Made by a program: the position numbers and the translations under genes. The notes below the pieces were generated by a model. That model was not told the DNA's origin and searched no databases. It was given only the letters and a program-made list of their open reading frames with translations. Of a DNA stretch of 64,000 nucleotides, positions 781-4,960 are shown piece after piece; within the stretch, counting starts at the first letter, position 1; each line of letters starts with the position of its first letter. Location: positions 2,177-66,176 of the forward strand of contig CAYJXI010000006.1 in the NCBI GenBank assembly GCA_964374105.1, in the 5' to 3' direction. Source of the stretch: an uncultured Planctomycetales bacterium (GTDB taxonomy: Bacteria > Omnitrophota > Gorgyraeia > Zapsychrales > JANLHA01).

Positions 781-870
781 TTTAGGGAAACGATGCATCA
801 AATAGTGGCCGGGCGGCCACTATTGGGGAAGAGGGAAGCGGTAGCCCCGTTTAGGGACGGTCACATTCTC
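781..870. repeat. Copy A of the recurring cassette-boundary repeat; the perfect 24-nt palindrome AATAGTGGCCGGGCGGCCACTATT lies at 801-824
   Basis: Seen directly in the sequence. It shares a 30-nt identical block with the copy at 3993-4023. It is flanked by the TTTAGGGA direct repeat. Confidence 0.8.
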
Positions 871-877
871 ATAAGTT

Positions 878-1411
878 ATGAAAAATTACTGTACATATTG
901 TACAAAGGAAATTGAGAATGACGTTGTTTTGTGCCTTGATTGCTCAGCTAGATTCCGATCTGATCCAAGCATGGCAATGGAAATTGCTACAAAGTATGTT
1001 AATTTCATTGGAGAACATCCAGAGATACAAAAGAAAGCTATTATGGTTGGTCTACCAGAAACGATATTACCTTATAACCGAGTTGTTATTAAAACATCTA
1101 TGCAGATTATGCTGTTGGCAATCAATGCTGATGTCTCAAAGAATCCTGTGAAGGAGCATTTAGAAAAAAGAGATAGTATTGAAGGTTGCTATCTAACGTT
1201 GCACAATTTCCAGTCTATGGTAGATTTACCATTCCCAGAGCTTTGCAATTATAAAGAAGATAGTGTTTCAGTAATGGCTAAGTTAGGGGAAAGATTAAAA
1301 GATAGCGAAACGGCAGAAGCATATATGACGTGGGAGTTAAAAAATGTAATTACACAGAAAAAGTACGAGAGGATGTTAGACAGATTGAGGATTCCTGTAC
1401 CGCACGACTGA
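878..1411 (+). CDS. Hypothetical protein with an N-terminal CxxC...CxxC zinc ribbon
   Basis: 177-aa ORF with CTYCTKEIENDVVLCLDC at the N-terminus. It overlaps the start of the downstream RusA-like gene, which suggests co-transcription. Confidence 0.4.
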   Translation: MKNYCTYCTKEIENDVVLCLDCSARFRSDPSMAMEIATKYVNFIGEHPEIQKKAIMVGLPETILPYNRVVIKTSMQIMLLAINADVSKNPVKEHLEKRDSIEGCYLTLHNFQSMVDLPFPELCNYKEDSVSVMAKLGERLKDSETAEAYMTWELKNVITQKKYERMLDRLRIPVPHD

Positions 1412-1428
1412 AATGTAACGAGTATTAT

Positions 1429-1905
1429 ATGTCACCAAAGAATCCTCTATATACAATTTGGGTCGATGGGAAACCGTTGAATTATAGAAATAAAAGTAAA
1501 CGTATTAGAGCTGCTTACAAAGGCAGAATTCAAACTGAAGCAAAAAAAGTGGTTAATAATCCGTGGAGTTCTAAAAGAATAGATGTGGAAATATGGTTCT
1601 CCGCAGATTCTGCCGTACGCCCAGATGTCGATAATGTTGCAAAACCAATATTGGATGCTCTACAAGGGATTGTCTACGTAAATGATTTTCAGGTACGCTC
1701 AGTTAAGGTAGGATGTATACCAAGAGATGGTGCCTTTGAATGTGAAAAAGAAGACCAAAAAGATTTTTTTAGATTACTTGATACTAATAAAGAAGAGTTT
1801 TTAATAAGAATATTTTACGGTATGTCAATTTCCAGGAAAAAATATGGTAACATCGTTTGTTATCCAATTAAAATGTTTCGAGAAAAATTTAAAAGTGATG
1901 CCTGA
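1429..1905 (+). CDS. RusA-like Holliday-junction resolvase (crossover junction endodeoxyribonuclease). The six-frame ORF opens at 1330; the likely start is the ATG at 1429
   Basis: Matches the RusA family signature (D-x-D-N...K-x-x-x-D-x-L, then a hydrophobic D-D). Relevant residues: RIDVEIWFSA, PDVDNVAKPILDALQGIVYVNDFQV. Confidence 0.6.
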   Translation: MSPKNPLYTIWVDGKPLNYRNKSKRIRAAYKGRIQTEAKKVVNNPWSSKRIDVEIWFSADSAVRPDVDNVAKPILDALQGIVYVNDFQVRSVKVGCIPRDGAFECEKEDQKDFFRLLDTNKEEFLIRIFYGMSISRKKYGNIVCYPIKMFREKFKSDA

Positions 1906-1934
1906 TCCCCCATGAAGGAAAAAGGGCAAAAAAA

Positions 1935-2561
1935 GTGGTGTCTGTCCCGACTTTTTTGATATTACTCGCTTTTCTTGTAGCATCGAGTTCCTCAACGATA
2001 AGGACCACGTTGAATGGTTTTACCGTTCATGTCCGGTATCAAGAGGATATGCGCTATAAGCTTGATATCATTCGGAATGCTAATAAATCTCTGATTCAAA
2101 CCATTTCTGTCCGTAACGGTGTTGATCCTTCTGTTCCAGGCGGTCTGGAAATAATTGACATTAATCAGGATGGCTATGGTGACCTGCGCCTCCGTGGTGG
2201 AGAGACAGCTAAAAGTGCTTGGTACAAGATATGGTACTTTGATCCAAAAAGTGAGCAATTCGTTTGGTCACATACAACACATCCAACAGATCCGCGTGAT
2301 GACAGTGATCTAGTGCCTTCAGCCGGTGTTGCTAAGGTGGCGTCTTCGATTATAATCAAGCGCTCAGATAACCCATGGATTTGGGATGGTGTTCGTCAAG
2401 TGCTGACGAACGCTGGCATCGATCATGAGATTATCAAGATAGAAACACGGCCAGAATATTCAATTCTTACAGTAGCAGTTTACTTCAACGAACCATCACA
2501 TCCAAATACAGTAAGCCTCATTCACTTTGACGGCAATAAATGGTTCTTAAGGACAGAATAG
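1935..2561 (+). CDS. Hypothetical secreted protein
   Basis: 208-aa ORF with an N-terminal hydrophobic signal-like segment (MVSVPTFLILLAFLVASSSS). No recognisable domain. Confidence 0.4.
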   Translation: MVSVPTFLILLAFLVASSSSTIRTTLNGFTVHVRYQEDMRYKLDIIRNANKSLIQTISVRNGVDPSVPGGLEIIDINQDGYGDLRLRGGETAKSAWYKIWYFDPKSEQFVWSHTTHPTDPRDDSDLVPSAGVAKVASSIIIKRSDNPWIWDGVRQVLTNAGIDHEIIKIETRPEYSILTVAVYFNEPSHPNTVSLIHFDGNKWFLRTE

Positions 2562-2640
2562 TAGGTGGCCGGGGGACACGCGCCGAAACCCAAATGAAAA
2601 GTTAAAGCACCAGACACGTCTTACGAAGGATGCGTAGCCT
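2553..2640. repeat. Copy C1 of a related intergenic repeat (AATAGTAGGTGGCCGGGGGACACGCGCCGAAACCCAAAT ... GCACCAGACAC)
   Basis: About 80% identical to 4895-4960 over roughly 60 nt. It shares AATAGT..GTGGCCGGG with copies A and B. Confidence 0.7.
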
Positions 2641-3322: not shown

Positions 3323-3533
3323 TGATTACGAACGCCGCGGGCTTCTTAAAGAACAAGTGACCGGTATCAAAGCTGTCGAAGATTTAATCTCAGCGAGAAT
3401 TCCCCGCCTTTATTTAAGGCGGGGATGAGAGCAAATTCCAGAAATGAAATTTCTGGACAACGATTAGCGCCAACAGCGCTTGAGACAGTAAGTTCCCCGC
3501 CTGTGAAGGCGGGGGAATCTAATCAAGCGCTCT

Positions 3534-3908
3534 TTGAAAGACTTGAAAGCCGCCAAAGCGAACTTAAAAATCGATGAAGGGATCGCTTATACAGTCGCGT
3601 ATCTGGCGATGTTACACGCAGCCAGAGGGTTGATGTTGGTGAAAGGTTACCGTCCCGTGGGGAATTTTCAACATAAAACCTGTGTTGAGTTCATGATGCA
3701 TTTTTTAGGGAAAGAATTTAAGGCCCTCGCTGAATATTTTGATATGATGCGGCGCAAGCGCAATATTTTTACCTACGAAAGTGATATCTTGATCTCAGGC
3801 ACCGAAGCCGAAGAGGCGATCAAGCGGGCGGTTGAATTTGTTCAGCTGATCAAAGAACTGCTCCGCAAGGAACACCCCCAGATGGAGCTGGACTTTGATT
3901 TGAATTAA
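3534..3908 (+). CDS. HEPN-domain protein with a TTG start, adjacent to the MNT gene; a candidate MNT-HEPN toxin-antitoxin-like pair
   Basis: Helical profile resembles HEPN (PF05168-like): AYTVAYLAMLHAARGLMLVKGYRP...FQHKTCVEFM...RRKRNIFTYES. The canonical Rx4-6H motif is degenerate (T in place of H). An in-frame TGA at 3504-3506 limits any extension upstream. Confidence 0.5.
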   Translation: MKDLKAAKANLKIDEGIAYTVAYLAMLHAARGLMLVKGYRPVGNFQHKTCVEFMMHFLGKEFKALAEYFDMMRRKRNIFTYESDILISGTEAEEAIKRAVEFVQLIKELLRKEHPQMELDFDLN

Positions 3909-4009
3909 GTCATATCCCTGGAATTTGAATTTCAACGCCGTCGTCTATTTGCATGAGGCGCTTGCGCAGGAAGAGCAGGAACCAGTGGGGACGGGGAAAC
4001 GATGCATCA

Positions 4010-4034
4010 AATAGTGGCCGGGCCGGCCACAATT
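4010..4034. repeat. Copy B of the recurring cassette-boundary repeat, with palindromic core AATAGTGGCCGGGCCGGCCACAATT
   Basis: Nucleotides 3993-4023 are identical over 30 nt to 785-814 (GGGAAACGATGCATCAAATAGTGGCCGGGC). Outer inverted segments are GACGGGG and CCCCGTT. Confidence 0.8.
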
Positions 4035-4152
4035 GGGAAAAAGAGTAAAAGGTGTCCCCGTTGGGGGACTGACTCTTTCTCCTTCAACGGTAATTCGGCA
4101 CTTGTCCAGAATCAATGTAGTGAGTGGGAGTGAAAGAGGGAGGATTACTGAA

Positions 4153-4935
4153 ATGACCACAATATCGACAATCTTACCAGATGCAGATTCAATTTTAGCT
4201 CTTGAACCAGAAGAATTGGCTGGATATCTTTTAGAGTATCTGAATTCTCTTCCCGAACAAGAGAGAAGACACCTCAATAGATATAATTTTAGTTTAGAAT
4301 ATAATTTTTCGGATTATCCTCAAGGGCTCCGAGAAGATATTTTAAAAGTATTCATGGAGGCATGGTGTTGGCTTGAGCGAGAAGGATTAATTGCACCTAA
4401 ACCGGGCCAGCAAGGTGAATGGGTTTTTATTACAAGACGAGGACAAAAATTAAAAAATCATCAAGACTTAGAAGCTTTCCGGAAGGCCAATTTATTACCA
4501 CGTCAATTACTTCACCCAATTATTGCTCAAGAAGTCTGGTCTGCCTTTATTCGAGGAAAATATGATACTGCAGTCTTTCAGGCTTTTAAAGAAGTCGAAG
4601 TAGCAGTACGAAATGCTGGTTGTTTTACAGCAACCGATTACGGTGTCCCACTTATGCGTAAAGCATTCGATGAAAATTCTGGTCCCCTAACTGATCAATC
4701 TTTACCTTTACCTGAACGGCAAGCAATGGCCCATCTTTTTGCGAGGGCAATTGGTCTTTATAAAAATCCATCAAGTCATCGACATATCTGCATAAAAGAT
4801 CCAGCCGAGGCAGTTGAGATAGTCAGTTTGGCAAGTCACTTAATGCGAATAATCGATTCACGAGTTGAAAATAAGGCCTCAGAAAAAGACGGGAATCCGT
4901 GGAATCCGGGGGACCCACGCCGAAATCCAAATTAA
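4153..4935 (+). CDS. Ymh/TIGR02391-type (HEPN-superfamily, abortive-infection-associated) domain protein with an uncharacterised N-terminal region. The likely start is the ATG at 4153; the six-frame ORF opens at 4033 inside repeat B
   Basis: HPIIAQEVWSAFIRGKYDTAVFQAFKEVEVAVRNAG plus YKNPSSHRHICIKDPAEAVEIVSLASHLMRIID matches the Hypoth_Ymh pattern (AVfeAfKavEvavR ... RNPxxH ... eAxexlxLaSxLlR). A strong SD (GAGGGAGG) lies upstream of 4153. Confidence 0.55.
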   Translation: MTTISTILPDADSILALEPEELAGYLLEYLNSLPEQERRHLNRYNFSLEYNFSDYPQGLREDILKVFMEAWCWLEREGLIAPKPGQQGEWVFITRRGQKLKNHQDLEAFRKANLLPRQLLHPIIAQEVWSAFIRGKYDTAVFQAFKEVEVAVRNAGCFTATDYGVPLMRKAFDENSGPLTDQSLPLPERQAMAHLFARAIGLYKNPSSHRHICIKDPAEAVEIVSLASHLMRIIDSRVENKASEKDGNPWNPGDPRRNPN

Positions 4936-4960
4936 GAACTAAGGTACCAGGCACTACTGA
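4895..4960. repeat. Copy C2 of the same intergenic repeat (CCGGGGGACCCACGCCGAAATCCAAAT ... TACCAGGCAC). It supplies the stop codon of the Ymh-type gene
   Basis: Seen directly; aligns with 2569-2617. Confidence 0.7.

Follow-up and report, generated by a model that had tools for sequence, protein, structure and literature searches.

In T4-like phages, conserved stem-loop motifs called PeSLs flank unrelated ORFans; crossovers have been mapped to the stem-loop, chimeric PeSLs are the result, and no dedicated recombinase is known (PMC2839356; PMC4122927). Here we describe short repeats of a partly similar kind in a 64,000-nt stretch of DNA from an uncultured bacterium of the Omnitrophota (assembly GCA_964374105.1, contig CAYJXI010000006.1, positions 2,177 to 66,176), which we refer to as the window. 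The repeats, which we call Z, E, A, C, B and D in their order along the DNA, stand at the ends or starts of open reading frames (ORFs) in a small accessory-gene island at the upstream end of the window, where every junction of unrelated modules carries one. Tentatively, we read them as lineage-specific, mosaic module-boundary repeats that would act as hairpin-centred recombination joints for module shuffling, in a PeSL-like manner.

Like PeSLs, the repeats are short intergenic motifs with a G/C-rich stem-loop that lie in a plastic region beside unrelated and mostly unassigned ORFs, and they include chimeric copies, which in PeSLs come from exchange in or near the stem-loop. PeSLs, however, carry a strong sigma-70 early promoter, whereas none is predicted in the repeats studied here; the PeSL stem-loop is a proven terminator, whereas the plus-strand hairpins here lack a T-run; and PeSLs are one motif in T4-like phages, whereas two flank types alternate here on a bacterial chromosome. 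Neither mini-circles nor indel variants were found in any assembly of our locus, all of which share one arrangement. Because the sigma-70 promoter and the phage context are absent, the repeats fall outside the PeSL family.

Repeats at the module boundaries

The window is identical, from position 3383 onward, to contig CAMTXN010000026.1 of the metagenome-assembled genome (MAG) GCA_947085705.1, and it is also identical to Logan contigs from runs ERR4904390-92 and ERR3478686. Its lipoyl synthase has its best named relatives in Omnitrophica MAGs (66-72% identity). All assemblies that contain the region come from one population, and they break at an insert in a HEPN gene that resembles a miniature inverted-repeat transposable element (MITE) and again 1.2 kb before the start of the window.

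Six repeat copies lie within about 6 kb, with E to D spanning 455-4954 and Z located about 1.1 kb upstream of the window. Every gene in the first 9.6 kb of the window is on the plus strand, and so are all repeat copies, which share a single orientation. Reading along this strand, Z is followed by a 201-aa secreted ORF, an M10 metalloprotease, E and 290 nt without a credible gene; A is followed by a 177-aa Zn-ribbon-like ORF, a RusA-like resolvase, a 208-aa XAC2610-related ORF and C; and a MNT/HEPN (PDC-M05-like) toxin-antitoxin pair is followed by B, a TIGR02391/Ymh gene and D. Beyond D come a HicB/HicA pair in which HicA is broken and fragments of Mrr (N-terminal) and of an ORF6N antirepressor. 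The contents of the island are toxin-antitoxin, defence and phage-type genes, several of them broken.

The original prediction had described a single repeat family situated exactly at gene boundaries. Indeed, every copy is found at an ORF boundary in a variable-looking island, and in the stretch scanned the copies are not scattered at random inside housekeeping genes, so the idea of boundary repeats is not refuted. The copies do not form one family, however, but two sub-families, hereafter family 1 (A, B and the partial copy Z) and family 2 (C, D and the partial copy E). A profile built from A and B gives no match to C or D. The two families alternate around the cargo three times, as Z-[201 aa, M10]-E, A-[177 aa, RusA, 208 aa]-C and B-[Ymh]-D. 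Family 1 copies end 5' of the following start codon, by 7 nt in A, where the codon is the ATG at 878, by 71 nt in B and by about 180 nt in Z; on their other side, A follows a doubtful 71-aa ORF, starting 9 nt past its stop, and B lies 85 nt past the HEPN stop. Family 2 copies abut or overlap stop codons: E begins 8 nt after one, C lies across one (2559-2561, of the 208-aa ORF) and D is read through. The cargo has a GC content of 34-50% (34-43% in the module between A and C), the full repeat copies 53-58%, the partial copy E 40% and the rest of the window 43%. No paralogy was found among the cargo proteins, the modules being unrelated, and the sequences between the repeats are no more similar to one another than shuffled sequences are.

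Copies A and B can be aligned from GGGAAACG to TTCTC with 72 of 88 positions identical, and they share the 30-nt alpha block GGGAAACGATGCATCAAATAGTGGCCGGGC. This block had been claimed as exact in two copies, which we confirm; two matches occurred in no shuffle. A perfect run of 30 nt within 82% overall identity is longer than expected (permutation p = 0.013), and this uneven conservation between A and B suggests that the alpha block is constrained or was recently converted. The block contains the palindrome GATGCATC as well as AATAGTGGCC..GGCCACTATT. What had been taken for a perfect 24-nt palindrome at 801-824 differs from its reverse complement at 2 positions and is hairpin 1 of A, with a 10-bp stem (AATAGTGGCC/GGCCACTATT) and a GGGC loop. 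The supposed outer inverted pair, GGGAAACG and CCCCGTTT, is mirror-like and not complementary, and the nested cruciform that it was thought to form is predicted by neither DNA nor RNA folding. Instead, the DNA fold of B consists of two adjacent hairpins (z = -3.3 on the plus strand and -4.3 on the minus strand). Hairpin 1 of B has a 7-bp GC stem, an A.A mismatch in the outer stem and one extra loop base relative to A, and hairpin 2, GTCCCCGTTGGGGGAC, sits inside a longer imperfect stem (AAAGAGT/ACTCTTT). In A, hairpin 2 is mostly decayed and the fold is weaker (z = -1.6). The 5' alpha block is unpaired in the folds of both copies, where only the internal hairpins form.

The third member of family 1, Z, was found in Logan contigs (L005 and L021; L005:123-194) by the profile built from A and B only (E = 7.8e-7), and shares just the hairpin-2 half of the family. 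Z is 72 nt long, and its outer stem is perfect over 21 bp (GAGAAAGGGACAGTCCCTAAA / TTTGGGGACTGTCCCTTTCTC; dG -50 kcal/mol, z = -5.5). It directly follows the end of an upstream ORF, and past its hairpin a long C/T-rich tract runs to a final TTTTTT. One Logan assembly, L004, begins inside Z. B and Z each have their own 5' arm complementary to the same 3' arm.

In family 2, C and D are identical at 39 of 49 positions over their common stretch. The conserved stretches reported for this pair are real: CCGGGGGACNCNCGCCGAAAYCCAAAT occurs only at 2569-2595 (C) and 4906-4932 (D), and the tail motif is present in both. The AATAGT..GTGGCCGGG element that had also been assigned to the two copies is found in C, but D has GTGGAATCCGGG in its place. 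The sequence G(C/T)ACCAG(A/G)CAC occurs only at 479-489, 2607-2617 and 4944-4954 (0.00 expected). Its first occurrence had been noted as a related sequence; it is an exact 11-mer of C, and the stretch that ends with it is the best non-self match of a profile built from C and D only, albeit a weak one (E = 0.51). We regard this stretch as a probable partial family 2 copy, E. For neither C nor D did we obtain a fold better than those of shuffled sequences (z = +1.8 and +0.2, respectively). The reading frame of the repeat relative to the upstream gene differs between C and D.

The claim that D supplies the end of the Ymh-type gene also holds. The Ymh/TIGR02391 ORF ends at 4935, inside D, and nine homologues end 11 to 21 residues earlier; D therefore supplies a read-through tail. 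Judged by these homologues, the Ymh ORF appears to have lost its native end and to read into D, as would be expected at a recombination joint.

All that A, B, C and D have in common is a short GC-rich core, GTGG..CCGGG..GG(A/C)CAC, whose palindromic form is GTGGCC-N3-5-GG(C/A)CAC. A looser pattern, GTGG..CCGGG..GG(A/C)(C)CAC, which was composed after the data had been seen, matches only these four copies in 64 kb and had 0 matches in 200 shuffles, while GTGGCCGGG occurs only at 805, 2565 and 4014 (0.25 expected). Around the core, family 1 is made up of the alpha block, the core, a purine-rich linker and a second hairpin, and family 2 of a gene end, the core and an unstructured 45-nt tail. The copies are mosaics of such pieces: Z is the hairpin-2 half of family 1, C has only the 5' arm and the core in common with family 1 (AATAGTAG, which precedes the core in C, resembles the AATA 5' of the family 1 core), and E is tail only. 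Z and E are without any core. Boundary repeats in a variable region are thus what stands of the original prediction, while its structural argument does not, as half of the copies do not fold.

Further copies of either family were sought with nhmmer and regular expressions in the remaining 59 kb of the window and in 4.7 kb beyond it (63.7 kb together), and none was found; the core is absent there, and so is the hairpin-2 motif. The coordinates of the repeats and of the modules between them are collected in Table 1.

Table 1. Repeat copies and cargo modules of the island (positions in the window).
Feature	Position	Strand	Details
E, partial family 2 copy (3' half only)	455..489	+	8 nt after M10 metalloprotease stop (445-447); ends GCACCAGACAC
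A, family 1 copy	785..870	+	alpha block 785-814; hairpin 1 801-824; purine-rich linker; decayed hairpin 2 ~843-858; end TTCTC
Cargo module II	878..2561	+	177-aa Zn-ribbon-like ORF; RusA-like resolvase 1429-1905; 208-aa XAC2610-related ORF (Pfam, PHROGs, NCBIfam)
C, family 2 copy	2556..2617	+	AATAGTAG and core GTGGCCGGGGGACAC (2565-2579); epsilon tail GCGCCGAAACCCAAAT...GCACCAGACAC
MNT/HEPN (PDC-M05-like) toxin-antitoxin module	2665..3908	+	between C and B; own predicted promoter 2665-2693
B, family 1 copy	3994..4081	+	alpha block 3994-4023; hairpin 1 4010-4034; hairpin 2 4054-4069; end TTTCTC
Cargo module III, TIGR02391/Hypoth_Ymh gene	4153..4935	+	last 14 codons and stop codon encoded by copy D
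D, family 2 copy	4894..4954	+	degenerate core GTGGAATCCGGGGGACCCAC (4899-4918); epsilon tail ending GTACCAGGCAC

Possible recombination joints and alternative explanations

The explanation that best fits the tight clustering, the single orientation, the boundary positions, the alternation, the mosaic copies and the unrelated cargo of diverse composition, and that we put forward with caution, would be that the repeats are joints where modules were inserted or exchanged. A short conserved sequence centred on a hairpin would offer portable homology or structure for recombination, and each exchange would leave a chimeric repeat, which would account for the mosaic copies. A further role of the hairpins may be that of a transcriptional insulator or terminator between modules. 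The sequence itself shows the repeats with their positions, orientation and alternation, the common core, the mosaic make-up, the unrelated cargo and the local clustering; the production of the present arrangement by recombination at the repeats and the role as terminator or insulator are what we infer.

Several results weigh against this explanation. The arrangement is the same in all assemblies, and therefore no exchange event is seen. With only four full and two partial copies in one population, we infer the mechanism. The homology between families 1 and 2 is about 15 nt, which is short for RecA-type recombination, and no compensatory changes at homologous positions, as a sign of selection on structure, were found. 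As for transcription, 22 promoter-like sites (sigma-70) were predicted in 1-6500, none of them overlapping A, B, C, D or E; the hairpins have no T-run on the plus strand and only their minus-strand versions are terminator-like, and canonical terminators occur elsewhere in the window.

To our knowledge, the candidate phylum Omnitrophota has no cultured representatives, and hardly anything has been described of its mobile elements. Recombination joints, if that is what the repeats are, would reveal the way in which this phylum shuffles its accessory and defence genes, and hairpin-centred exchange points in a bacterial chromosome would extend the PeSL idea, which is known only from T4-like phages.

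The original prediction had itself suggested a site-specific recombination site. In this case the repeats would be true sites, integron-like or att-like, and a recombinase (a tyrosine recombinase, or an HUH/Y1 enzyme acting on the hairpin) would cut the core GTGGCC-N-GGCCAC. The stretch between two cores would be a cassette, and families 1 and 2 would be hybrid sites with re-assorted left halves (the alpha block or a gene end) and right halves (the linker and hairpin 2, or the epsilon tail); an empty-site junction would read alpha-core-epsilon, e.g. GATGCATCAAATAGTGGCCGGGGGAC, and a circular junction gene end-core-linker. Each of the four full junctions indeed has the palindromic core, which the rest of the 64 kb lacks, and the flank combinations are those expected from crossover at a fixed core. 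The toxin-antitoxin cassette, which has a promoter of its own, alternates with cassettes that apparently lack one, the alpha block is perfect over 30 nt, as a protein-binding arm might be, and every contig ends upstream of Z, where an integrase would be expected. Nevertheless, this reading does not pass its tests. Apart from an ISL3 transposase (13052-14125), 8 kb away, a scan of 40 ORFs across the window gave no recombinase, and neither Phage_integrase nor Y1_Tnp had a match among these ORFs. The core spacer is unequal (4 nt in A; a 3-nt loop in B, which is one base longer overall; 3 nt in C), the core of D has a 3-nt insertion, the family 2 cores are degenerate and Z and E are coreless, and no empty-site or circular-junction variant is present in any assembly. 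We thus consider true site-specific sites unlikely.

Described sites offer two comparisons. With integron attC sites, including those in clusters without an integrase (CALIN), the repeats share a length of 60-90 nt, a position directly 3' of ORFs and in some cases across or tight on the stop codon, and one direct orientation; the cassettes in between are likewise unrelated, some apparently promoterless, and include toxin-antitoxin genes. They differ from attC in that they have no RYYYAAC...GTTRRRY boxes at any copy, no end-to-end pairing (the 5' and 3' flanks of family 1 do not pair as R''/R' and L''/L' would) and no extrahelical-base architecture, half of the copies being unstructured, and in that there is no IntI in the window. 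When R'' (RYYYAAC) and R' (GTTRRRY) pairs 40-130 nt apart were sought by regular expression on both strands of 1-8000, the only one found was at 7570-7664, inside coding sequence. A second comparison is with the pdif sites of Acinetobacter plasmids, which are 28 bp long (11-6-11), resemble chromosomal dif and alternate in orientation. In these plasmids, pdif (Xer) sites are short and imperfectly palindromic, bound small modules that often encode toxin-antitoxin systems, and can be common to neighbouring modules (PMC6449649), all of which is reminiscent of the island, whereas the repeats here have arms of 6-10 bp, a spacer of 3-5 nt, no resemblance to dif and one orientation.

The other suggestion of the original prediction was an element of the repetitive extragenic palindromic (REP) or MITE type. 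The repeats would then be decayed small selfish non-autonomous elements (like REP/REPIN, MITE or the palindrome-associated transposable elements, PATEs, of IS200/IS605) that repeatedly landed in a tolerant region and had no role in gene movement. Such elements are also GC-rich intergenic hairpins just 3' of genes, and several properties of family 1 would fit: the hairpins are strong, as the scores of Z and of B as DNA attest, the long hairpin of Z is REPIN-like, B and Z each carry a complementary 5' arm of their own, as palindromic elements have, the ends of the family are weakly complementary (GGGAA/TTCTC), and there is partial decay, e.g. of hairpin 2 of A. Moreover, the other MITE-like insert (3393-3521) is present in the same island and assemblies break there, just as one assembly breaks inside Z. 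On the other hand, the six copies stand in one orientation and strictly alternate with cargo, and they are not dispersed, with 0 copies in about 45 other intergenic regions across the 63.7 kb. The flanks show no target-site duplication, and there is no terminal inverted repeat above 5-7 nt, as end pairing is limited to GGGAA/TTCTC (5 nt, A) and GGGGAAA/TTTCTCC (6 of 7, B). With TTTTA 5' of A and GGACG 5' of B, there is no conserved IS200/605-type target; the family 2 cores, which would be the right ends, are degenerate and not predicted to fold, and there is no Y1 transposase in the window as would be expected of REP/REPIN-RAYT elements. The REP/MITE reading accordingly fails its tests as well, and we find it doubtful.

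Searches beyond the locus also bear on selfish elements. In 596 Gb of species-representative genomes, a set that does not include the window's own genome, the hairpin pattern had 14 single matches, 13 of which are chance matches in GC-rich coding DNA. The only other one, a 28-nt match (AATAGTGGCCGGGCGGCCACAATTGGGA) that includes the mismatch of B, is in an Opitutaceae MAG (JBIJCX010000129.1; L013:1896-1925), where it is intergenic, between the 3' end of a large minus-strand gene, which we take to encode pyruvate carboxylase, and a Y1_Tnp gene. The Omnitrophota and the phylum of the Opitutaceae are usually placed in the Planctomycetes-Verrucomicrobia-Chlamydiae (PVC) group, and the match may be coincidence or may reflect distant homology, i.e. 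a hairpin motif conserved across this group. A link to RAYT transposases through this match is weakened by the position of the hairpin, about 100 nt outside the inverted repeats that border the Y1_Tnp gene. These inverted repeats, GGGGTCGGGCCGTTACTTGTTAGCA, are perfect and 25 nt long, and tandem CCTTAGGATCGGCG and TAAGGGTAATGGGGTCG repeats also flank the gene (L013:680-1797, IS200-like).

Elsewhere, hairpin 1 had no match in metagenome contigs and hairpin 2 had two chance matches in gut contigs; three DNA patterns and two cargo proteins had no match in viral contigs; and blastn against plasmids and phages returned nothing related. A six-frame protein search for more copies through spurious ORFs gave 0 matches, and the repeats are absent from the contexts of the closest Ymh homologues (66-70% identity). 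Sampling other parts of the genome via a multi-copy insertion sequence recovered the same locus only, and a literature search on the accessions had no match.

A purely cis-regulatory origin appears rather improbable. Here, the repeats would be duplicates copied along with local duplications and without any role in recombination, family 1 being an operator and/or bidirectional terminator-insulator, or a structured 5' leader, and family 2 a 3'-UTR (untranslated region) motif. The two palindromes of the alpha block, GATGCATC and AATAGTGGCC..GGCCACTATT, are perfectly conserved, both hairpins of B score as terminator-like on the minus strand, the hairpin of Z lies past an ORF end and runs into its C/T-rich tract, and a promoter-like third repeat family is present in the same island (4987-5019 and 5788-5821), all of which would be consistent with regulation. 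However, there is no T-run 3' of the hairpins on the coding (plus) strand, no promoter is predicted in family 1, no regulator gene is evident, and Rfam gave nothing overlapping the repeats in 1-7000, even at E <= 5. A regulatory role would also leave both the overlap of family 2 with stop codons and the mosaic pieces unexplained.

Less probable still, in our view, is a working integron-like cassette system of a new kind in the Omnitrophota, with sites unrelated to attC. A recombinase, possibly encoded just upstream of Z at the assembly break, would cut the hairpin core GTGGCC-N-GGCCAC, and promoterless as well as toxin-antitoxin cassettes would come and go, with flanks exchanged in the hybrid sites left behind. 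Should a dedicated recombinase take part, the island would represent a new cassette-capture system. If neither this nor hairpin-centred exchange applies, the repeats still mark module boundaries, and they are a caution that boundary repeats in a toxin-antitoxin-rich array need not be integron sites.

Canonical attC sites in a CALIN are hardly credible: copy length, position 3' of ORFs and a cargo of toxin-antitoxin genes and small unknown ORFs, typical of chromosomal integron cassettes, would fit, but we reject them because the R boxes are absent and the folds are unsuitable, being no single imperfect hairpins with paired ends and, in family 2, no structures at all. Four further candidates were rejected. 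A coding repeat is contradicted by the A/B indel, which shifts the frame of a 40-aa ORF called on A in the Logan contigs, and by the differing frames of C and D. The differences between C and D are not adenine-specific and there is no reverse transcriptase, as opposed to what a variable/template repeat of a diversity-generating retroelement would require. An att duplication of a tRNA or tmRNA 3' end finds no tRNA or tmRNA genes and no T-arm-like stems, and an ancient tandem duplication of whole modules is at odds with cargo that is not paralogous and spacers no more alike than shuffles.

Other features of the island

An AT-rich tandem palindrome at 2671-2714 (TTGTAATATGTTTATATTACAA / TTGTAATAAATTTGTATTACAG), which shares sequence with the predicted MNT/HEPN promoter, is probably the autoregulatory operator of the pair. 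The HEPN gene is split by an insert of about 129 nt (3393-3521); its N-terminal part occupies 3303-3392, and from 3522 its C-terminal part continues in the same frame. The ends of the insert are imperfect terminal inverted repeats, GAGAATTCCCCGCC / GGCGGGGGAATCT, and its interior has two TTCCCCGCC...GGCGGGG hairpins, another hairpin, TCCAGAAATnnnATTTCTGGA, at the centre, and stop codons in frame. Breaks of the MAG contig and of three Logan contigs lie within or beside it (window positions 3284, 3383 and 3494), and because assemblies break there, we read the insert as probably a multi-copy MITE in this genome; there is no second copy in the window.

Downstream of D, a third repeat family, CTTG(C/T)CTAATAAACG..CTT..CTATAAT.CG, is present at 4987-5019, directly downstream of D, and at 5788-5821, directly downstream of HicA. 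Both copies are consensus-like sigma-70 promoters (TTGCCT-16-TATAAT and TTGTCT-17-TATAAT). The promoter at 5788-5821 has a hairpin and T-run behind it, at about 5861-5894, and therefore could give rise to a candidate small RNA of about 70 nt. At 5080-5105 there is a (GAAAGTG)3 microsatellite. Decay is evident in the downstream part of the island (5209-6577), with a HicB-like gene, a HicA-like frame with an in-frame stop (about 5511-5735), an ORF with the Mrr N-terminal domain only (5940-6362) and a 72-aa ORF6N/antirepressor fragment (6359-6577).

Elsewhere in the window

TPR/HEAT genes are located at 6.8-9.6 kb. A 250-nt direct repeat, 99% identical between 9773-10022 and 14268-14517, encloses the ISL3 transposase and a 744-aa protein that has a Peptidase_S74 (tail-fibre chaperone) domain, and this stretch (9773-14517) looks like a recent duplication or a composite insertion. 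Giant genes have been reported for Omnitrophota, and the window has very large surface-type genes at 14477-29602, namely a MORN-repeat protein (14477-15847), a 3371-aa ORF (15856-25971) and a 1199-aa subtilase (26003-29602). Lastly, the sole match at gathering level in the window to an Rfam family is a c-di-GMP-I riboswitch at 45256-45346 on the plus strand (37.6 bits vs a gathering score of 35). Downstream of it lies a 353-aa ORF (45543-46604) with internal repeats of about 123 nt and without a Pfam family.

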